Below are positions 1,896 through 10,453 of a stretch of DNA of 42,364 nt, piece after piece. The notes beneath the pieces were generated by a model. It ran no database searches. It had not been told where the DNA came from and saw only the letters and a list, made by a program, of their open reading frames with translations. Source of the DNA: Kiritimatiellia bacterium (lineage in GTDB: Bacteria; Verrucomicrobiota; Kiritimatiellia; RFP12; DVOR01); assembly GCA_051892815.1 (NCBI GenBank), contig JBJFGP010000174.1, positions 1 to 42,364 of the forward strand, read 5' to 3'. Each line of letters opens with the position of its first letter. Position 1 is the stretch's first letter. Both the position numbers and the translations under genes were made by a program.

Positions 1896-3461
1896 CTACC
1901 GAATCAGAATCAGCGTACCGGCGGCGAGCGGCTCGCTCAACTGAAGGGAAAGGTTATTGAGGAAGGTAGCGGCGCCGGTCTCTCCCAAGGTTGTGCCGGC
2001 CATCAACTTGAGGGTGTGGAACCCGGCCTTGAGGCCTTTCAAGGTGACGGTCTCTTCGGTGAAGGTGGTGTTCAACTCCCTTTCGACCACCACTGCTTCT
2101 TTGCCATCGAGGTAGATGGGGATACGCTGTCCGCTCGTATAATTGGCATAGTTCAGCGAGCGCATATTTATCGTCAGCGTGTAGTGTCCGTCGACAGGCG
2201 CACAGAAGGTCTGCTCAAGACCATTGCCGACCTCTGCGCCCACCGGGGCAAGCAAGCAAAGTTCCCAGGAGTTATCACTTGTAGAGCCGCCAACCGGAGT
2301 TCCACCAAGAAGCGCCCAACACACGCCGCCATAACCGTTTCCGGGACCGGTGGCTGACCAGTCCGCAAAGGCTGCATAGGGATAGGTCGCGTTGTAGAAG
2401 TCCCTGACGCGGTTCAGCCAGACGTTCCCTTCCAGACCGCCATGGACCAGTTCGAAGTCGGCATTGGCGAGCAGGTTGGCGTCTGAAGCGATGACCTTTG
2501 CGCTCAGGCGGATGTCGCCGTCACCCTCGGGAACGGTAATCGTCAAGGGGTTGGCAAGGCGGTTTTCTTCGGTGATGCCGTCGCCCACCCAGCCTACGAA
2601 GTAGTATCCGTCGTCGGGGCGGACGGAGAGGGTGTGGGTCTCTCCTGTGGTAATGGCGATTGGCTCGCCGTAGCCTTGAACGGTGCCGTTGGCGACCTCG
2701 ACTTCGATCTGGCGCTCAAAAAGGCCGAACTGCATGTCGTCTATCGTATCGACGGCGGTTGCGCTGCTCTGACAGGGTTCGGCCTGTTCGGTGTAGATGT
2801 CAAGGTCGTAGTCGCCCGCCTCCAACTGGAAGGGCTCGCTCCAGACCCTCTTCCAGTCATCACGGGTAGAGTCCGACCGTACGATATGCTGGAACGTGCG
2901 GCTGAAGACGGCTTGGCCGCCAACTTCGATGGTCATTTTGCTATCGGCCCAGTTGCTGCCGCGTGTGCCGCCGGGACCATGCCAAAAGGAAATCTGATAG
3001 GTTCCCGCCTGAGGCACCGTCACCTTTTGGCGCAGGCGTTTGGGGACATAAACGACGTTCGCCGCACCCGCGGGCGCCTTGGCATGGAATGCAATGCGTT
3101 GATTCTTGCTCTCGCGCGAAGAGGACGAGACCTTACTCACATTGGAATTGGGCGGGGTGTAGTAGATGGTGTTCGGGTAGGTCGTGAGCGTCGTACCGTC
3201 TTCCAACTCGGTATCCTCCTGCACCACGAGCTCCCAGTACGTCAGCGGCTGAATCACAACCCCGCCCGGACTCGTTTGGCCCACGAGTTCCAAATTGCCG
3301 TAGCCGTTGCCCTGGTTCATATTGAGCCGGTCGGGATTTTCGATAGGATCGTCGAACCCCGGATCGTTCAGCAGGTTGTCGCCGACGATGCCAGCACGAG
3401 CCACGTTCACGGAGCAGCAAACCGTTGCCGCCGCAATATAATATGGAATAGACAGACGCAT
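1896..3461 (-). CDS. secreted protein with two CBM/DUF642-like modules flanking an InlB-B-repeat-like module
   Basis: ORF 1896..3623, with the start trimmed to ATG 3461 (MRLSIPYYIAAATVCCSVNVARA signal peptide, AAGG Shine-Dalgarno). Modules start NLLNDPGFDDP and NLLANADFELV. The middle reads GTVQGYGEPIAITTGETHTLSVRPDDGYYFVGWVGDG. The protein ends ...AAGTLILIR. Confidence 0.85.
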   Translation of the reverse strand: MRLSIPYYIAAATVCCSVNVARAGIVGDNLLNDPGFDDPIENPDRLNMNQGNGYGNLELVGQTSPGGVVIQPLTYWELVVQEDTELEDGTTLTTYPNTIYYTPPNSNVSKVSSSSRESKNQRIAFHAKAPAGAANVVYVPKRLRQKVTVPQAGTYQISFWHGPGGTRGSNWADSKMTIEVGGQAVFSRTFQHIVRSDSTRDDWKRVWSEPFQLEAGDYDLDIYTEQAEPCQSSATAVDTIDDMQFGLFERQIEVEVANGTVQGYGEPIAITTGETHTLSVRPDDGYYFVGWVGDGITEENRLANPLTITVPEGDGDIRLSAKVIASDANLLANADFELVHGGLEGNVWLNRVRDFYNATYPYAAFADWSATGPGNGYGGVCWALLGGTPVGGSTSDNSWELCLLAPVGAEVGNGLEQTFCAPVDGHYTLTINMRSLNYANYTSGQRIPIYLDGKEAVVVERELNTTFTEETVTLKGLKAGFHTLKLMAGTTLGETGAATFLNNLSLQLSEPLAAGTLILIR

Positions 3462-3507
3462 AGCGAACCTTTTTGACAAATGATTCTGACAAGACTTTGC
3501 GCCTGTC

Positions 3508-3545
3508 ATTTTAGCCCCCCCCCCCCCCCCCCCCCCTGATGTCAA
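3508..3545 (-). promoter_or_regulatory. sigma70-like promoter: TTGACA (3545..3540), 26-nt spacer containing G22, TAAAAT (3513..3508)
   Basis: The minus strand reads TTTTGCTTGACATCA-G22-CTAAAATGACAGG. It lies about 47 nt upstream of ATG 3461. Confidence 0.5.
3515..3536. repeat. homopolymer C22 (G22 on the coding strand of the downstream gene)
   Basis: Counted directly in the sequence. Confidence 0.95.
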
Positions 3546-3596
3546 GCAAAAAGTGCGTCTCGCGCCAAGAAATTTTTCGGGTTCAATCGGCCCCCA

Positions 3597-3712
3597 CTCC
3601 CCGAAGATGCCAACCTGCCACACCCCAAGGTAGCAATGTCCGCCCCCGAAAGGTACCCGAGATCGGGTGCGGAAGGTGCCTACCCGCCGCCCCGAAAGGT
3701 ACCAACGAAACG
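3597..3712. repeat. tandem array, 5 units, exact 23-bp period (C-rich orientation on plus strand)
   Basis: AAGGT/AAGAT anchors at 3604, 3627, 3650, 3673 and 3696. An example unit is CCCCGAAAGGTACCAAC. Confidence 0.85.
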
Positions 3713-3715
3713 CCC

Positions 3716-4768
3716 CTAGTGCTCCGCCTCGCCCTCGTGGAACGAACCGTCCGCGTGAAAGTGTCCCGAGGCCCCCTTCTCCCCCGCATCAAGCTGCGAA
3801 ACCAGCGCGTAGGCCCCCTCCACCACCACCTCGTCCGACGCCCCGATTCCCTCGACCGCCGCACGACCCTCGCGCTCCGCCAACACACGAACCGGACGCG
3901 CCTCAAAGTGGTCAGACTCCCCCTTCTCCCGCACCAACACCACCAGTTCAAGCCCACGCCGCACCACCGCGCGAGCCGGAACCGTCAGCCGCTCCGCCCC
4001 CCCCTTCGGAGCCAGCCACACCTCCGCCCGCTCCCCAGCCAACGCACCCACCCCCTCCGGCTCCGACAACCTCAGCCGCACCATCCCCTCCGCGCCCGAC
4101 GGCAAAACCGCGTACCTCGCCGGCTGTCCCCCGACCGACACCGATGCTCCATCCTTCAGCCCGCGCCACACCCCCGAAGGCACCTCCAGCGTCAGCGCCA
4201 ACGCCCCCTTCCGCACCAGCCGCACCAGCGAAGCCCCCCCCTCCACCTGCGCCAAATTGCCCGCGTCAAACCCCGACACCACCCCCTCGCACGGCGCCAA
4301 AAGCCGCCACACCCCGCCCGACACCACAACCCCGGAAAGCCCATAGCCCGACATCTCAGACACTACCCTCCCCAACGCCGACTCAAGTTCCGCATGACCC
4401 GTCCCCAACCGCTCATAATGCCCCAGGCGCGCCCTCAACCGAGCCCCCTCCGCCTCAAGCTCCCGCAGCCGAGGTGCCTCCACCTCAGCCAGCGCCTCGC
4501 CCGCCTTCACCCCCGAACCAATCCGAGAAACCAGCCGAACCCGACCCGCCAACGGCGTCCCCAGAACCAAACGATCCTCCTCCGCCACAGCCCAGAAACC
4601 AACCCCGCGCCAGCCCTCCTCCAACACCATCCGCCGCGGACGCTCCACCCTCAAACCAAGCGCCTCCCGAGCCCACTTCCCGACCGTCACAGCCTCCTCG
4701 TGGTGCCCTTCAGCCAACACCGCCAAAGGCAACCAGACCAACAGACAGATACCAACCTTTCCCATCAT
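3716..4768 (-). CDS. efflux RND periplasmic adaptor (membrane fusion protein, CzcB/CusB-like) with His-rich C-terminal tail
   Basis: 350 aa with an N-terminal signal/anchor (MMGKVGICLLVWLPLAVLA), a coiled-coil segment (APRLRELEAEGARLRARL) and a beta-barrel-like C-terminal half. The tail reads GHFHADGSFHEGEAEH. Its ATG overlaps the upstream stop (ATGA). Confidence 0.85.
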   Translation of the reverse strand: MMGKVGICLLVWLPLAVLAEGHHEEAVTVGKWAREALGLRVERPRRMVLEEGWRGVGFWAVAEEDRLVLGTPLAGRVRLVSRIGSGVKAGEALAEVEAPRLRELEAEGARLRARLGHYERLGTGHAELESALGRVVSEMSGYGLSGVVVSGGVWRLLAPCEGVVSGFDAGNLAQVEGGASLVRLVRKGALALTLEVPSGVWRGLKDGASVSVGGQPARYAVLPSGAEGMVRLRLSEPEGVGALAGERAEVWLAPKGGAERLTVPARAVVRRGLELVVLVREKGESDHFEARPVRVLAEREGRAAVEGIGASDEVVVEGAYALVSQLDAGEKGASGHFHADGSFHEGEAEH

Positions 4769-7700
4769 CTCTCAACCTCCTCCAGCCAGCACGCATACCC
4801 CAATTCCGCCGCCGCATCCAGCAACGAATCCGACCACGACAACTCCGACAACGCCCCCTCAAGACGCTCCTCCATCAACTCAAAACACCCCACTGCATCC
4901 ACCTCCCCCGAACGATACAACCCCCACGGATCCAACACCCCCGCCGCCGGCCGGTGTGCCAACAGACGCGACACCTTCCCGGCAACCTCCGCCGCCGCAG
5001 ATACCCTCCTCTTCCAGCACATCGCAACCTCCTCCAGCGACACCTCCCGCCTACCCGTCGCCTCCGCGATTGCCAACCGGTTGCGGTTCCAGATAGGCAG
5101 ACTCACCCCCACGCCGAACCCGAGACGGTCGCTCCCGTCTTCCCGTTCGTAGAGCGGCGAGAGCGACACCTCCGGGTACTGCCGGCGCACTTCAAGCCGC
5201 AACTCCGCTTCGCTTGCCCCGAGCCGCCCCATTGCCGCCAAAACCTCCGGATGGCGCACAAGATCGAGTGCCGCAGGAAGTTTCAGCGGCCCCCTCGGAA
5301 GCGCAGGAATCCCCTCGTCCAAAGCAATCTCCGAGCCCGGATGGAGCCCGAGCAGCCGCTTCAGATCTGCCTCCGCCTCGGCCTCTTTCTCGCGCAACTC
5401 CTGGGCCAGATGCTGCCTTTCGTGGTGGCGGCGGCGTACCGACGAGGCGGTCCCTTTGGAGAGTTCCCCCGCCTGCGACAGGTGGTCGACCGCCGAGAGC
5501 AGAGATGCCAACCTGTCGGACCCCAAGTAGTCAACCACCGTCTCACGGCGGCGGCGTATCCCCTTGAGGCGGAGCCAGGCACGAACGGCGGCGTTGGAGG
5601 TCGAGAGTTCGGCCGATTGGAGGGCAAGTCTCTCGGCTTGGGTGTACATCTCCCGGGCGCGGCGCTGGAGCGAAGGGGTTCCGGAGATGGGCAGGACGAG
5701 GCCGATTCCTGCGCCGAAGAGGAAGGGGTGGTCGGACGGCTGTGCGATGCGCAGGAGGTCGAAGGAGAGGTCGGGATCTGCCCAGTAACCGGAGGCTTGG
5801 GCGGCTTTCCGGGTGTGGGCGAGTTTGGTTCGGGCGAGGCTGAGTTCGGGGTTGCCGATGAGGGCGGTCCTGGCTGCGTCGGCGGGGGTTTGGAGGGTAA
5901 TGCGGGCGGGGCGCCATTGGTCGGATCGGGTCTGGAGGTCGAGTTGGGCGGGGTGGTAGGCGATGCAGCCGGCGAGGAGGATGGGTAGGCAGGCGAGGAG
6001 GGCGGTGGTTGGCACCTTTGGGGTGCGTTCGGTGAGGATGACGAGTGCGGGGAGTACGAGTTGGTTGAGGAGGAGGGCGCCCAGGATGCCGCCGAACTGG
6101 ACGGTTGCGAGGGGGGCGAGGAGTTCGCCTCCGGGGGTGTCGGCGCTGAGCATCAGGGGGATGAGTCCGAGGAGGGTGGTGAGGGTGGTCATTATGATGG
6201 GGGCGAGGCGTTCGCGGGCGCCTTCGCGCAGGGCTCTCGGGAGGGGCTGGCCTTGGTCGAGGCGCTGGAGGAGGGCGTTGAGCAGGAGCAGTCCGTTGCG
6301 CAGGGCAAAGCCTGTGACGGTGACGAAGCCGACTAGGGCGCTGACGCTGAGGCTGGTGTGGGCGAGGCGGGCGGCCAGGATGCCGCCGATGAGGGCGAGG
6401 GGCAGGTTGACGAGGGCCAGGAGGGCGTGGCGGAGGCGTCCGAGGCTCAGGGTGAGGAGGGCGAGGATGAGGGCGAGGAGGGCGGCGGAGGCGAGCAGGA
6501 GGGTGCGGGTGGCGCTTTGGCGGGCTTCGTGGCTGCCGGTGAGGGTGAGGTCGCAGCCTAGGTTTTGGGCGGCGGGTTGGAGGCGTTGGAGGAGGGTTTG
6601 GACGACTTGTCCGCTGCTGGCTTTGCCGTCGAGGTTGCAGGAGATGAGGGCTTTGCGGCGGCCGTTTTCGCGCAGGAGCATCAGGGGGGCTTCTTCGGCG
6701 CGGAGGGTGGCGACGGATGCGAAGGGAACGGGCTGTCCGCGGCCACCGACGAAGGTGAATCGGCGCAGGTCGCGTTCGGTCTGGCTGGAATCGTCGGCGA
6801 GGCGGATAGCAACCTCCCGGCGCGATTGGTTGGCAAGAATGGTTCCCACAGGTAGGCTCCTGTAGGCGGCGGAGATTTGTATCCCCGCATCCCTAAGGTT
6901 CATACCTTCCGCGGCGAGGGCTGCGGGGTCGTAGTCGATGCGCAAGGTACGGCCCGTGGCCTCGCGGTTGGCGCGAATGTCGGCGATGCCGGGCACCGAC
7001 GCGATGAGGGGTTTCAAGGTTTGGACCGCCGCGCGCAAACGATTCGGATCTTCGCAATAGAGGTTCACGGCCAGTTCCGCCTCGGTCCCGGAGAGGATGG
7101 CGCTGATGCGGTGCTCGATGGGATAGCCGACCATCACGCTGGCGCCGGGTATCGATCCGAGCCGTTCGCGGATGGCTTGGCGCACCGCAGAGGCGTCCCC
7201 GTCGAGGTGGACGATGAACTCGGTACTGGAGACAGGTTCGGCGTGCTGATCGCGCTCCGCACGCCCCGTCCGCCGCACGACCTTCCCGACGCCCGGGATG
7301 GAGGAGAGCACCCGACCGGCGTGCCGAGCCGTACGCTCCGCCTCCGGCAGCGACGCCGAAGGACTCAGCGACAAGAGCACATTCAGGGTCGGCTCGTGCA
7401 GCGGCGGCAGGAAACTCGTGCCCAGCCTCGTCGCCAAAGATGCCGACCAGACCGCCAACAGCAAGACGGGAATCAGCGTCAGAATCGGGTGCCGAATCGA
7501 GCACTCCAAACACGGCGCGTAGAGCCGATCCAAAAGCCTCATCAGAGGCGCCCGCCCCTTCGAAACGCCCCCGCCCGAACCACCCTCAAGCAACAGAGAA
7601 AGGCACGGCACCACCACCACCGCAACCGCGAACGACGCCCCCAGAAGCGCCAGATACGCCTTCCCCAAAGGCTTGAAAAATCGCCCCTCCAACCCGGGAA

Positions 7701-9054
7701 GCAGAAACAGCGGAACAAACGCCAGCACGATAATCGCTACCGAACAAAGCACACTCGGAAACACTTCTGCCACCGCATTCGCAACCACCTCCCGCCGCGA
7801 CAGATACCCCCCTTCGTCAAGCCTTCTGCGTATCGCCTCGGCAAAGACAATGCCCGAGTCGACAATGTCTCCAGCCGCAACAGCCACCCCACCCAATGTC
7901 ATCACATCCACCCCAATCCCAAGCACCGGAAAGAGCGAAACACCCGCCAGAACCGTCAGAAAAAGCGACGCCAAAACCACCAGAATCGAACGCCATTTCA
8001 GGAGCGTCAGAGCCAATACCACCAGCACGATCCAAAGCGTGTCCCGGAGGATTCCGCGCACACCCCGGAGCGACGTTTCTATGAAGTCCGCCTGGCGGTA
8101 GGCGGCAGGTTCGACAGTCAGTCGTGCGCCATTCCGGGCGGCGAAGGAAGCCAGCACCGAGTCGATTTTCCGCGTTAGTTCGAGGGTGTTTCCACCGGGC
8201 GTTTTCTGCACGGAGAGGAGTACCGCTTCAGCGGAATCGAGGCTAGCAGAACCCCTTCTGGGTGCGCCCGAAAGGGTGACATCAGCGGCTTGTCGGAGTC
8301 GGAGAGAAGGGCTCAAAGGGAGGTCGCGGAGGGCTTCGAGCGTCTCTACCCGGGCGGTTTGTTCGAGGGGGATTTCTTCAGACCTGTCGTCCGGAAGGTA
8401 GCCTGCGACGGGGCGCGAGAGGGCGGCACGAAGGGTATCGGCGAGTTGGTCTGGGCGGATGCCGAGGGAAGCCAGGCGGATGGGGGTGGTGTTGATTCGA
8501 TATTCGGGAAGGGCACCGCCCATGACGGCGACTTCGCCGACACCTGGGATGGCGAGGAGTTGGGGCCTGAGGTCGTATTCGGCTCGTTCGCGCAGGTCGA
8601 GGAGGTTGGCATCTTTTGTTGGAATCAGTGCGATGAGTTGGATCTCGCCGGTGACTGCCAATGGGGGTGCGATCTCGGGTTTGGCCTCTGGGGGGAGGTC
8701 GGTTTGGAGGCGTGCGAGGCGTTCGTAGAGGCGGGTTCGGGCGCGGTCCAGGTTTTCGCGCCAGTCGAGGTCGATGGTGATGATGGAGAGTCCGATGGTG
8801 GAGGAGCTGCGGATGGTGCGGACTTGGCCGATTCCGTAGGCGGCGGTCTCGAGGATTCGTGTGACGCGCTGTTCGGTTTCGGCGGCGGTGAGTCCGGGGG
8901 CTTCGGTCTGGAGAACGAGTCGCGGGGGTTGGATGTCGGGGAAGATGTCGACGGGCAGCCCGCGCAGTCCCAGGAGGCCGGCGAGGGCTACGGCGGCTAG
9001 GGCTGCGAGGGTGGTCTTGGGGTGGTCGAGGAGGGGTGCAAGGAGGGGGCGCAT
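4765..9054 (-). CDS. RND efflux permease (heavy-metal CzcA/CusA-like, aa 1 to ~1010) fused in frame to an outer-membrane factor (TolC/CzcC-like lipoprotein, aa ~1015-1429)
   Basis: 1429-aa uninterrupted ORF. The N-terminus reads ...LPVDIFPDIQPPRLVLQTEAPGLTAAETEQRVT, and 12-TM RND topology is apparent. An internal lipobox ALLACLPILLAGC has its Cys codon at 5965..5967. It is followed by about 399 aa of OMF-like sequence. Confidence 0.85.
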   Translation of the reverse strand: MRPLLAPLLDHPKTTLAALAAVALAGLLGLRGLPVDIFPDIQPPRLVLQTEAPGLTAAETEQRVTRILETAAYGIGQVRTIRSSSTIGLSIITIDLDWRENLDRARTRLYERLARLQTDLPPEAKPEIAPPLAVTGEIQLIALIPTKDANLLDLRERAEYDLRPQLLAIPGVGEVAVMGGALPEYRINTTPIRLASLGIRPDQLADTLRAALSRPVAGYLPDDRSEEIPLEQTARVETLEALRDLPLSPSLRLRQAADVTLSGAPRRGSASLDSAEAVLLSVQKTPGGNTLELTRKIDSVLASFAARNGARLTVEPAAYRQADFIETSLRGVRGILRDTLWIVLVVLALTLLKWRSILVVLASLFLTVLAGVSLFPVLGIGVDVMTLGGVAVAAGDIVDSGIVFAEAIRRRLDEGGYLSRREVVANAVAEVFPSVLCSVAIIVLAFVPLFLLPGLEGRFFKPLGKAYLALLGASFAVAVVVVPCLSLLLEGGSGGGVSKGRAPLMRLLDRLYAPCLECSIRHPILTLIPVLLLAVWSASLATRLGTSFLPPLHEPTLNVLLSLSPSASLPEAERTARHAGRVLSSIPGVGKVVRRTGRAERDQHAEPVSSTEFIVHLDGDASAVRQAIRERLGSIPGASVMVGYPIEHRISAILSGTEAELAVNLYCEDPNRLRAAVQTLKPLIASVPGIADIRANREATGRTLRIDYDPAALAAEGMNLRDAGIQISAAYRSLPVGTILANQSRREVAIRLADDSSQTERDLRRFTFVGGRGQPVPFASVATLRAEEAPLMLLRENGRRKALISCNLDGKASSGQVVQTLLQRLQPAAQNLGCDLTLTGSHEARQSATRTLLLASAALLALILALLTLSLGRLRHALLALVNLPLALIGGILAARLAHTSLSVSALVGFVTVTGFALRNGLLLLNALLQRLDQGQPLPRALREGARERLAPIIMTTLTTLLGLIPLMLSADTPGGELLAPLATVQFGGILGALLLNQLVLPALVILTERTPKVPTTALLACLPILLAGCIAYHPAQLDLQTRSDQWRPARITLQTPADAARTALIGNPELSLARTKLAHTRKAAQASGYWADPDLSFDLLRIAQPSDHPFLFGAGIGLVLPISGTPSLQRRAREMYTQAERLALQSAELSTSNAAVRAWLRLKGIRRRRETVVDYLGSDRLASLLSAVDHLSQAGELSKGTASSVRRRHHERQHLAQELREKEAEAEADLKRLLGLHPGSEIALDEGIPALPRGPLKLPAALDLVRHPEVLAAMGRLGASEAELRLEVRRQYPEVSLSPLYEREDGSDRLGFGVGVSLPIWNRNRLAIAEATGRREVSLEEVAMCWKRRVSAAAEVAGKVSRLLAHRPAAGVLDPWGLYRSGEVDAVGCFELMEERLEGALSELSWSDSLLDAAAELGYACWLEEVER

Positions 9055-9254
9055 CAGTCGCGTTCTCTGGTGTTTTTGCGGGTGCGGAGATGGCGATGGC
9101 GGCGGCAGAGGGTATGGGTCTTGGGGGGCGTGTCGCGGGCATCGGCGGGTCGGATTTCGACCTTTGCGGCGGGGGCGTTGGTGGTTGGGTTCTCGGCCTT
9201 TGCGGTGCAGGTGGCGAGGGTGAGGAGGAGTAGGGTAAGGGCAATGGGTTTCAT
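9054..9254 (-). CDS. small putative lipoprotein (66 aa)
   Basis: MKPIALTLLLLTLATC carries a lipobox. Third positions are GC-rich, and the stop overlaps the RND start as TGATG (translational coupling). The basic C-terminus includes CRRHRH. Confidence 0.5.
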   Translation of the reverse strand: MKPIALTLLLLTLATCTAKAENPTTNAPAAKVEIRPADARDTPPKTHTLCRRHRHLRTRKNTRERD

Positions 9255-9324
9255 ATCCGTTCTGCTTTGGGGTGTGGAGGGTTGGCTCCTGCCGGTTGGC
9301 GGGAGGCGGTTGCAGAACGGGGTG

Positions 9325-9720
9325 TCAGGCGAGCGGGCAGAGTCTCGTGGCGTAGGTGCGGTAGTGGTCGCCGGGGGGGGCGGCGGGCTGGTGGGCGCGG
9401 GGGATTGGGGCGGGCTCGCGGGGGGTGGCGATGAGGCAGGCGATTGGGGGATGGGAGGGCGCGGGCAGGCCGAGGTGGTGCTGCTCGACGGGGTGGGTCG
9501 GCTGGCTGTGGAGGATGAGGTGGGTGCAGGGGTCGCCGGCCTGGAGGGTGGTGTGCGCGGGGGCGGTTTCGCCGCCGCAGTCGTGGCATTCTCTGCCGCA
9601 TCCGTCGGGGTCCGGGTTGCAGAGGCAGAGGGCGCGCGCGGTCAACGGCGCGGCGAGGAGGGTCGCCGCGGCGAGGAGCGTGGCCAAGGCCTTTTTCAAC
9701 CAGTTCCCTTTGGATTCCAT
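9325..9720 (-). CDS. secreted Cys/His-rich small protein, putative periplasmic metal-binding accessory
   Basis: Signal peptide KKALATLLAAATLLAAPLTARA, then LCLCNPDPDGCGRECHDCGG and several His residues. Third positions are GC-rich. A canonical promoter lies directly upstream. Confidence 0.55.
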   Translation of the reverse strand: MESKGNWLKKALATLLAAATLLAAPLTARALCLCNPDPDGCGRECHDCGGETAPAHTTLQAGDPCTHLILHSQPTHPVEQHHLGLPAPSHPPIACLIATPREPAPIPRAHQPAAPPGDHYRTYATRLCPLA

Positions 9721-9726
9721 ACCTTC

Positions 9727-9755
9727 ACTCTAGCATTTCCGGCGGGGGATGTCAA
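9727..9755 (-). promoter_or_regulatory. sigma70-like promoter TTGACA (9755..9750) - 17 nt - TAGAGT (9732..9727)
   Basis: The -10 hexamer ends 6 nt before the A of ATG 9720. The transcript would therefore be leaderless or nearly so. Confidence 0.5.
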
Positions 9756-9797
9756 GCCTGCACCGGCGGGGGCCGGGCGGGCGGAGGCGGGGGCAGT

Positions 9798-9886
9798 GGG
9801 TAGGCACCTTTGGGGTCGACGGGTTGCAACCTTTCGGGGGCTGAGGTGGGCACCTTCGGGGGCGGGAGGTATCAACCTTTCAGATC
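9798..9886. repeat. tandem array, 4 units, exact 23-bp period (G-rich orientation on plus strand)
   Basis: ACCTT anchors at 9806, 9829, 9852 and 9875. Unit cores are GGTAGGCACC, GGTTGCAACC, GGTGGGCACC and GGTATCAACC. Confidence 0.9.
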
Positions 9887-10453
9887 GAGAGATTGGTAGG
9901 CGGCGATGGTCCGCTCGAACAGTTCGTCGAGCGTCCAGCCCAAGAGATTGGCGCCGCGGGCGATAACCTCCCGGGAGCATCCGGCGGCGAACTTGCGGTC
10001 TTTGAACTTCTTGCGGACGCTCTTGAGGTTGAGGTCCGCCGCGCACTTCGAGGGGTACATCAGCACGATGGCCCCGAGCAGCCCCGTCAGCTCGTCCACC
10101 GCGTAGAGCACCCGCTCCATCGGATGCTCCGGGGCGATGTCGTTGACGATGGCATAGCCGTGCGACGCCACCGCGCGGGCGACCGACTCCTCAACTCCCG
10201 CCTCCTTCAGAAGCGCCAGTGAGCGGGCACAGTGCTCCTGCGGCCAGAGCTCGAAGTCGATATCGTGCAGCAGCCCCACAATCCCCCAATACTCCTCCTC
10301 CGCGCCAAACCCGAGCGCCCGCGCAAACCAACGCATCGTCCCCTCCACCGTCCGCGCATGGAGCAGATGGAACGGCTCCTTGTTGTAGCGCAGAAACAGT
10401 TCCCACGCCGCCGCGCGCGACAGCCGAGTCGATCGGATCATCGATTCATTCAT
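9872..10453 (-). CDS. HD-domain metal-dependent phosphohydrolase
   Basis: 193 aa with GLLHDIDFE (HD motif) and downstream His/Asp residues. ATGA overlap with the upstream gene. Confidence 0.8.
   Translation of the reverse strand: MNESMIRSTRLSRAAAWELFLRYNKEPFHLLHARTVEGTMRWFARALGFGAEEEYWGIVGLLHDIDFELWPQEHCARSLALLKEAGVEESVARAVASHGYAIVNDIAPEHPMERVLYAVDELTGLLGAIVLMYPSKCAADLNLKSVRKKFKDRKFAAGCSREVIARGANLLGWTLDELFERTIAAYQSLDLKG

Follow-up and report, generated by a model that had tools for sequence, protein, structure and literature searches.

Textbook tripartite efflux pumps consist of three separately made proteins distributed over two membranes. The best solved relatives of all three parts of the pump discussed here come from such systems, namely CusCFBA of Escherichia coli and ZneCAB and CzcCBA of Cupriavidus metallidurans; in the solved structures of the permease CusA, both the N- and the C-terminus lie in the cytoplasm. 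The locus described here departs from this plan by fusing the motor, a permease of the RND superfamily, to the channel, an outer-membrane factor (OMF). It lies in a stretch of 42,364 nucleotides (contig JBJFGP010000174.1, positions 1 to 42,364; hereafter the window) from an uncultured gut Kiritimatiellia bacterium, represented by a 2.15-Mb metagenome-assembled genome (MAG) in 251 contigs. A single uninterrupted frame on the minus strand (4765..9054), opened by an ATG, encodes both parts as one polypeptide of 1429 amino acids (aa), with an internal lipoprotein signal between them. Comparison with its relatives indicates that the fusion is real, old and maintained. We further propose, with a probability of roughly two in three, that it is made as one precursor in which the signal forms a 13th membrane helix and from which Lgt and LspA release a lipidated OMF.

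The RND part (residues 1-1007; 6034..9054, minus strand) is heavy-metal-efflux-like. The Pfam ACR_tran model matches residues 10-1007 with an E-value of 2.8e-178, using positions 7-1019 of the 1021 in the profile, and the part displays the full-length AcrB/CusA-type architecture with 12 helices and two large periplasmic loops. Its best solved relatives, CusA (E 1e-88) and ZneA (E 9e-78), align with it from end to end, the alignment with CusA extending from residue 32 to 1042 of the 1054 in the chain. Because of this end-to-end alignment and the 12 helices, the C-terminus of the RND part is predicted to be cytoplasmic. The essential proton-relay aspartate in transmembrane helix (TM) 4 of CusA, D405, corresponds to D399, which is invariant in the 36 fusions aligned. 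The top NCBIfam model, CusA/CzcA TIGR00914, gives 482.5 bits and stays under its cut-off of 701.45, consistent with a divergent subfamily of the heavy-metal-efflux type. Two of the three positions of the CusA methionine triad were compared, and M573 and M623 are replaced by Leu560 and Ser610 respectively; a CusA-type methionine site for Cu(I)/Ag(I) was accordingly rejected.

The OMF part follows in the same frame (residues 1030-1429, 400 aa; 4768..5967, minus strand, with the stop codon at 4765..4767) and is thus not a separate polypeptide with an N-terminal signal of its own, as it stands behind the RND part without an intervening stop. It contains two stretches matching Pfam OEP, the better of which covers residues 1059-1236 (E 1.7e-13). 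An AlphaFold2 model built from a 39-row alignment (predicted local distance difference test score, pLDDT, 83; predicted TM-score, pTM, 0.76) has 4 strands and long helices per protomer and is ordered from about 5-10 residues past the cysteine at the head of this part. Foldseek places TOprJ1, SilC, CusC and OprM at the top of its matches (E about 1e-15); the matches, which include TolC, range from E 1e-16 to 1e-10 with TM-scores of 0.6-0.74. The model thus predicts a confident CusC/SilC/OprM fold. Apart from Pfam OEP, only the fold search matched: no NCBIfam model was found for this part at E <= 0.1, nor any PDB chain by sequence at E <= 0.01. Public records label the fused proteins only as 'efflux RND transporter permease' or 'CusA/CzcA family'. 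As neither NCBIfam nor PDB sequences are matched and the record names speak of a permease alone, the outer-membrane channel is invisible in current annotation. The composition of the chain agrees with the preliminary description of this locus, which had proposed, from the letters and their translations, a single 1429-aa polypeptide with about 1010 aa of RND permease and about 399 aa of OMF: there is one open frame, ACR_tran ends at residue 1007, and the two OEP stretches lie in a mature OMF part of 400 aa.

The two parts are joined by a junction of residues 1008-1029 (5968..6033, minus strand), which comprises a basic linker, TERTPK, and an uncharged stretch, VPTTALLACLPILLAG, that runs up to the lipobox. 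The junction sequence reads ...LVILTERTPKVPTTALLACLPILLAGCIAYH, also written ...NQLVLPALVILTERTPKVPTTALLACLPILLAGCIAYHPAQ. The lipobox L-A-G-C itself covers residues 1027-1030 (5965..5976, minus strand), and we propose that its Cys1030 (codon 5965..5967) is lipidated and begins the mature OMF, which continues after the cysteine with IAYHPAQLDLQTR. With LAGC, 16 uncharged residues and TERTPK ahead of them, the segment has the make-up of a lipoprotein signal, as the preliminary description had recognized, with the same cysteine codon. We aligned the junctions of 36 fusions, 35 from Kiritimatiellia and one, P0043, from another lineage. Their order is constant: TM12, a net-basic linker, an uncharged stretch, x-x-G-C and a mature N-terminus of the form [RKQ]-S-Y-x3-P-I-D-W. 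The residues equivalent to G1029 and C1030 are retained in 35 of the 35 Kiritimatiellia fusions, P0043 alone being without them, and the linker is net basic in all fused relatives. Between the end of TM12 and the cysteine lie about 15 to 36 residues, depending on the fusion. The uncharged stretch measures 12-26 residues in the fusions (median about 16) and 10-20 in free-standing OMF orthologues; its column conservation, 0.38, is lower than that of TM11-12 (0.79) and of the mature N-terminus (0.62). Because it is poorly conserved and has a signal-like length, the hydrophobic stretch appears to behave as a cleavable signal peptide and not as a helix packed into the transporter.

The protein P0043 (locus L018, 176..4648) represents an independent RND::OMF fusion of 1490 aa with 28% identity. 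Its basic cytoplasmic linker is long and leads into an internal signal that contains no cysteine and is of the signal-peptidase-I type (...LTVLFVAAGVPSLSSVQAQS). No adaptor gene lies downstream of it, the next gene being rpoN on the other strand.

A search with residues 960-1429 retrieved one protein at 87% identity (P0002) and about 38 further clusters of 1390-1492 aa, with coverage of 95-98% and identity of 32-41%. These fused clusters derive from NCBI, ENA, JGI and Logan assemblies, and all the named ones belong to Kiritimatiellia or to Ca. Spyradenecus, which NCBI places under Lentisphaerota. Among 301 sampled genomes of the same order, with the length of the open frame taken as a proxy for fusion, 25 have the OMF match inside an open frame of 1424-1893 codons, and these belong to five genera (g1, g2, g8, g11 and g19) in two families. 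A free OMF frame of about 390-500 codons is present in 43. The same open frame is found in a sister species of the same genus (G344), and comparison with it puts the ratio of nonsynonymous to synonymous substitution (dN/dS) at 0.24 in the RND half and 0.26 in the OMF half, which indicates that both are under purifying selection; the 24-codon junction has a ratio of 0.42.

Fused and free forms intermingle at the level of the OMF. An exhaustive profile-free search with its mature part yielded 548 proteins at E <= 1e-10, among which numerous free OMFs of 417-450 aa are as close in identity (34-38%) as the fused representatives, and the free OMFs share with the fused ones both the lipobox and the mature N-terminus (C-[RKQ]-S-Y-x3-P-I-D-W). 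In free loci from the same taxonomic order, the gene immediately before the OMF encodes the RND permease and ends with a stop 55-74 nt short of the cysteine codon (L019, L021, L023, L027 and L030). At L021 the RND and OMF genes are even in one frame, and a stop and five codons alone lie between them; at L006 the two genes overlap as ATGA. In a quick maximum-likelihood tree of 86 mature OMF parts, all 43 fused rows (43/43) fall in one clade of 57 together with 14 free rows, and at least 3-4 changes of state are needed. A separate clade of free OMFs (beginning CVAYEP...) has no RND gene upstream. One further locus points to a change in the opposite direction: in genome G194 (L007, 2779..2995) a 217-nt element with two 98-nt inverted arms, 80% complementary, occupies the place where relatives have the linker, and supplies both a stop for the RND frame and a new start for the OMF (MMIMIWKNDMNTDLKIPR...). 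Because both flanks of this gap match fused relatives (e.g. P0021), the arrangement is a natural re-splitting of the fusion by a palindromic insert. Fused and free forms are thus two states of one locus.

These comparisons also bear on how the fusion arose. A look for a stop codon in orthologous loci, proposed in the preliminary description, revealed unfused orthologues that differ only by the stop; this supports the loss of a stop by mutation, one of the options raised there, as the evolutionary origin. The fusion would have arisen from an operon of the order RND-OMF-adaptor through loss of the stop between abutting genes. The linker carries a trace of what may have lain between them. On the plus strand, 6007..6023 is an exact core copy (GGT-N4-ACC-TTYGGGG; minus-strand translation TPKVPT) of a dispersed 23-bp intergenic repeat, which has 10 matches at <=1 mismatch in the window against 0.18 expected and 43 exact copies in the 2.15-Mb genome. 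The identical 17-mer, GGTTGGCACCTTTGGGG, stands just after another, unfused OMF gene of this genome (C163:5617), where it forms a 23-bp-phased pair with C163:5594. As 6007..6023 is an exact unit of an intergenic repeat, the junction was most likely once a short intergenic spacer, consisting of one repeat unit, that came into frame. In this genus, then, a spacer made of one 23-bp unit would have turned into the linker.

The reading that we favor, the one given above a probability of roughly two in three, runs as follows. The ribosome would make one 1429-residue precursor, whose RND part, after 12 helices, would have its C-terminus in the cytoplasm; the basic linker would stay inside, and the signal would insert from inside to outside as a 13th helix, bringing the lipobox to the periplasmic face. 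Lgt would then add diacylglycerol to Cys1030 and signal peptidase II (LspA) would cut before it. The RND permease would remain an inner-membrane protein, the signal helix still attached to its C-terminus, and the acylated 400-residue OMF would travel to the outer membrane and fold as a trimeric channel, which the separately encoded adaptor would link to the RND trimer. A plausible benefit is an RND:OMF dosage fixed at 1:1, matching the 3:6:3 pump. An internal signal of this kind calls for an even number of helices ahead of it, and this is what the homology to CusA and the net-basic linker of all fusions imply for the topology. The genome encodes the enzymes above the model cut-offs: LspA at 127 bits, Lgt at 192 bits and Lnt at 261 bits. 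Together with the conserved Gly-Cys and the drifting signal sequence, these features make a genuine fusion cut at its lipobox the best supported of the possibilities that had been considered at the outset. Extended to the family at large, the proposal would make the RND::OMF fusions membrane polyproteins, from which a β-barrel lipoprotein is freed by Lgt and then LspA with a 13th helix left behind; this wider statement we also favor, though with slightly less assurance.

Several points weigh against this reading or against steps of the argument that leads to it. No documented case of Lgt/LspA processing of a signal behind 12 membrane helices was found in the literature, and LolA (PF03548) was not detected in the genome by a model that also misses 9 of 14 control genomes. 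The count over 301 genomes uses open-frame length as its only proxy for fusion and includes 12 genomes with ambiguous frames of 500-1250 codons; the tree of OMF parts comes from a quick method, and the assembly of the source genome is fragmented. The metal assignment is indirect, with TIGR00914 under its cut-off and two triad methionines replaced by Leu and Ser. Finally, there are candidate internal starts. An in-frame GTG (V1014; 6013..6015, minus strand), the sole candidate in the gene, lies 16 codons before the cysteine and is conserved in both species of the genus (the window and G344), and at locus L015 (P0007, about 8090..8110) an in-frame ATG, also 16 codons before the cysteine, is preceded by a strong Shine-Dalgarno sequence, GAGGAAGG.

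These starts are the basis of the strongest alternative, in which ribosomes starting at the GTG, whether on the full-length mRNA or on an internal transcript, make most of the OMF, and read-through yields the fusion as a tolerated by-product. The derivation of the linker from a former intergenic repeat unit would fit such a restart, and some genes of this genome, the fusion gene among them, start without a clear Shine-Dalgarno sequence. The sequence ahead of the GTG, CACCCCAAAG, has no Shine-Dalgarno-like motif, and a consensus scan, in itself weak evidence only, found no promoter-like site near the GTG or elsewhere near the RND-OMF junction. Without an upstream stop there would be no termination-reinitiation coupling to feed an internal start, and the product, MPTTALL..., would have a signal peptide lacking a basic n-region. 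Among the relatives, L010 (G161) lacks any ATG, GTG or TTG codon from TM12 to the cysteine, the only start at L017 (P0038) lies 4-5 codons before the cysteine, inside the hydrophobic core, and the methionine of L015 is Leu, Ser or Ala in close relatives. Because L010 has no start at all and L017 has one only within the core, internal initiation cannot be the route by which the family makes its OMF, and a conserved internal start was rejected for this role, no start codon being conserved across the family. Nor does a restart account for a frame kept open in five genera. An in-frame restart at the GTG had been suggested in the preliminary description; the GTG is real, lacks a Shine-Dalgarno sequence as was said there, and is kept in both species, but it has no family-wide counterpart, and we consider it improbable as the main source of the OMF. 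The ATG of L015 with its Shine-Dalgarno sequence may be a relic, or a still-working ribosome-binding site, of a once-separate OMF gene.

The fusion might also persist uncut, with a permanent 13th helix and a tethered OMF that spans the envelope, as the preliminary description had allowed, or acts as a periplasmic extension. The conserved single frame would suit this arrangement as well. The hydrophobic stretch, short and poorly conserved, is unlike a packed helix, and in an uncut protein nothing would explain why the lipobox Gly-Cys is retained. In the AlphaFold2 model merely about 5-10 disordered residues separate the cysteine from the ordered OMF body, and a tether so short, judged by solved pumps, would not reach the inner membrane under the RND headpiece and the adaptor ring. 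The OMF part, moreover, passes freely between the fused state and that of an ordinary free lipoprotein. On these largely structural grounds an envelope-spanning chain seems distinctly unlikely, less so only than the last alternative: that the frame is an artefact of a stop lost in assembly or sequencing, or that the OMF half is decaying and unused, for which the fragmented MAG (251 contigs) and the presence of other OMF genes that could substitute might be cited, has a negligible chance of being right, since the same frame recurs in an independent same-genus genome and in dozens of NCBI, ENA, JGI and Logan assemblies, and the OMF half has a dN/dS of 0.26 (about 0.25 for the two halves), no stops and a confident complete model, which rule out a sequencing error, likewise raised at the outset, and a pseudogene alike.

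Downstream of the fusion lies the gene for the periplasmic adaptor (350 aa; 3716..4768, minus strand), whose start overlaps the stop of the fusion as ATGA and which has a strong Shine-Dalgarno sequence, GGAGGAGG. Sequence models for RND_mfp and CzcB/NccB matched it only weakly, under their cut-offs. Its AlphaFold2 model (pLDDT 81, with the hairpin at 99-144) has a CusB/ZneB-type fold with lipoyl, α-hairpin, β-barrel and membrane-proximal domains, and finds CusB (3NE5_C, E 8e-17) and ZneB (E 4e-16) as its top Foldseek matches. Adaptor orthologues occur downstream of every fused or unfused locus examined, and a C-terminal GHFHADGxxHE motif is invariant in the adaptors of the window, L006, L007, L009, L010, L015 and L017. 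In most of these orthologues the N-terminus is a long His/Asp-rich stretch, which reaches its greatest length, about 90 residues, in L010; in the adaptor of the window it is reduced to GHHEE. The His-rich ends are likely to be metal-binding tails. Because of the matches of the three parts to CusA/ZneA, SilC/CusC and CusB/ZneB, together with the His-rich adaptors of relatives, the pump appears to be of the heavy-metal type and probably transports a divalent metal cation, not Cu(I)/Ag(I).

Upstream of the fusion are two small candidate genes. A 66-aa open reading frame (ORF; 9054..9254, minus strand) with a signal-like N-terminus overlaps the RND start with its stop (TGATG) and has no family match. 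The accessory ORF before it (131 aa; 9325..9720, minus strand) is Cys/His-rich and predicted to be exported, with a signal-peptide-like N-terminus and the motif CLCNPDPDGCGRECHDCGG; it has no Pfam or NCBIfam match and is weakly similar (E 0.006) to a 150-aa ORF with a comparable Cys/His pattern at the equivalent place in L015. A promoter-like site (9727..9755, minus strand) with TTGACA, a 17-nt spacer and TG-TAGAGT matches 10 of 12 consensus positions, includes the extended -10 TG, and is the sole strong promoter-like site found on the minus strand within 3400..10100 in the consensus scan. The operon thus reads promoter-like site, 131-aa ORF, 66-aa ORF, RND::OMF and adaptor, confirming the earlier remark that accessories, RND::OMF and adaptor follow one another in an order different from czcCBA. 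In a genus of another class of the same phylum the orthologous OMF comes first and the adaptor next, a czcCBA-like order. Elsewhere in the same genome, C163:821..5439 encodes an unfused pair of the classical kind, an RND permease (ACR_tran, 995 bits) and, behind it, an OMF with a gene of its own, so that the two pump designs, fused and unfused, coexist in one cell.

The fusion gene also shares in an unusual pattern of codon usage, seen in 3716..9054 of the window and in the whole genome, in which the preference for G or C at third positions flips inside single genes in blocks of about 300-400 codons. Successive blocks of the fusion gene use the alanine codons GCC/GCG in the ratios 20/0, 1/17, 43/0 and 1/13, and the third-position GC skew (GC3 skew) swings between -0.8 and +0.8. 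Genome-wide, the autocorrelation of GC skew oscillates, with a minimum of -0.25 at about 1.7 kb and a second maximum of +0.09 at about 3.3 kb, and AT skew is opposite in direction to GC skew. The pattern recurs in the same-genus orthologue at L004 and is absent from other genera (standard deviation of the skew 0.04-0.10 versus 0.35). Amino-acid composition was rejected as the cause of these blocks, as the synonymous codons themselves flip.

The fusion raises the questions of whether a lipoprotein signal away from the N-terminus can be processed by Lgt and LspA and of what becomes of a pump that retains an extra helix. If the proposed processing takes place, the substrate range of signal peptidase II extends to internal sites, and the two trimers of a trans-envelope machine would gain a built-in 1:1 dosage and a common birthplace. 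The fusion itself suggests that selection acts on RND:OMF stoichiometry or on co-localized assembly. If the chain is cleaved, annotation misses outer-membrane proteins hidden in "RND permease" genes, and lipoprotein predictors that consider only the N-terminus would undercount. The family would illustrate both the birth of a fusion, by stop loss and conversion of a spacer repeat into a linker, and its undoing when a palindromic element inserts. The natural series of stop-separated free genes, fusions, a fusion with the repeat-unit linker and the palindrome-split fusion could serve as a ready test set. Reviews of tripartite pumps and of adaptors mention fused adaptors, fused ABC domains and SecDF, and no natural RND-OMF fusion; more widely, no description of such a fusion or of internal lipobox processing was found in the literature searched. 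Internal lipoprotein release as a way of making an outer-membrane protein, the process proposed here, was found in no paper.

Compared with CusCFBA, ZneCAB and CzcCBA, the present system unites the RND and OMF components in one polypeptide and follows the order RND-OMF-adaptor instead of C-B-A. Its RND half differs from the CusA/CzcA family in that the curated model is not reached (482 versus 701 bits) and in that Met573 and Met623 are Leu and Ser. The OMF half, once mature, would resemble CusC, a lipoprotein OMF with an N-terminal cysteine. With ordinary prolipoproteins such as OprM, CusC and Lpp the junction shares a typical LAGC, a basic n-region and an uncharged stretch of about 16 residues; the signal here is internal, behind 1007 residues and 12 helices, and once cut it would stay on the RND protein rather than be degraded. 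A further parallel is the cytochrome b-c1 polyprotein FbcH of Bradyrhizobium japonicum, which signal peptidase I cuts at an internal signal peptide. There too one chain links a polytopic inner-membrane protein, through a signal peptide, to an exported partner that belongs to the same complex. After cleavage of FbcH by signal peptidase I neither product leaves the inner membrane, whereas the fusion described here has a lipoprotein-type signal, the substrate of signal peptidase II, and the part that would be released is bound for the outer membrane.

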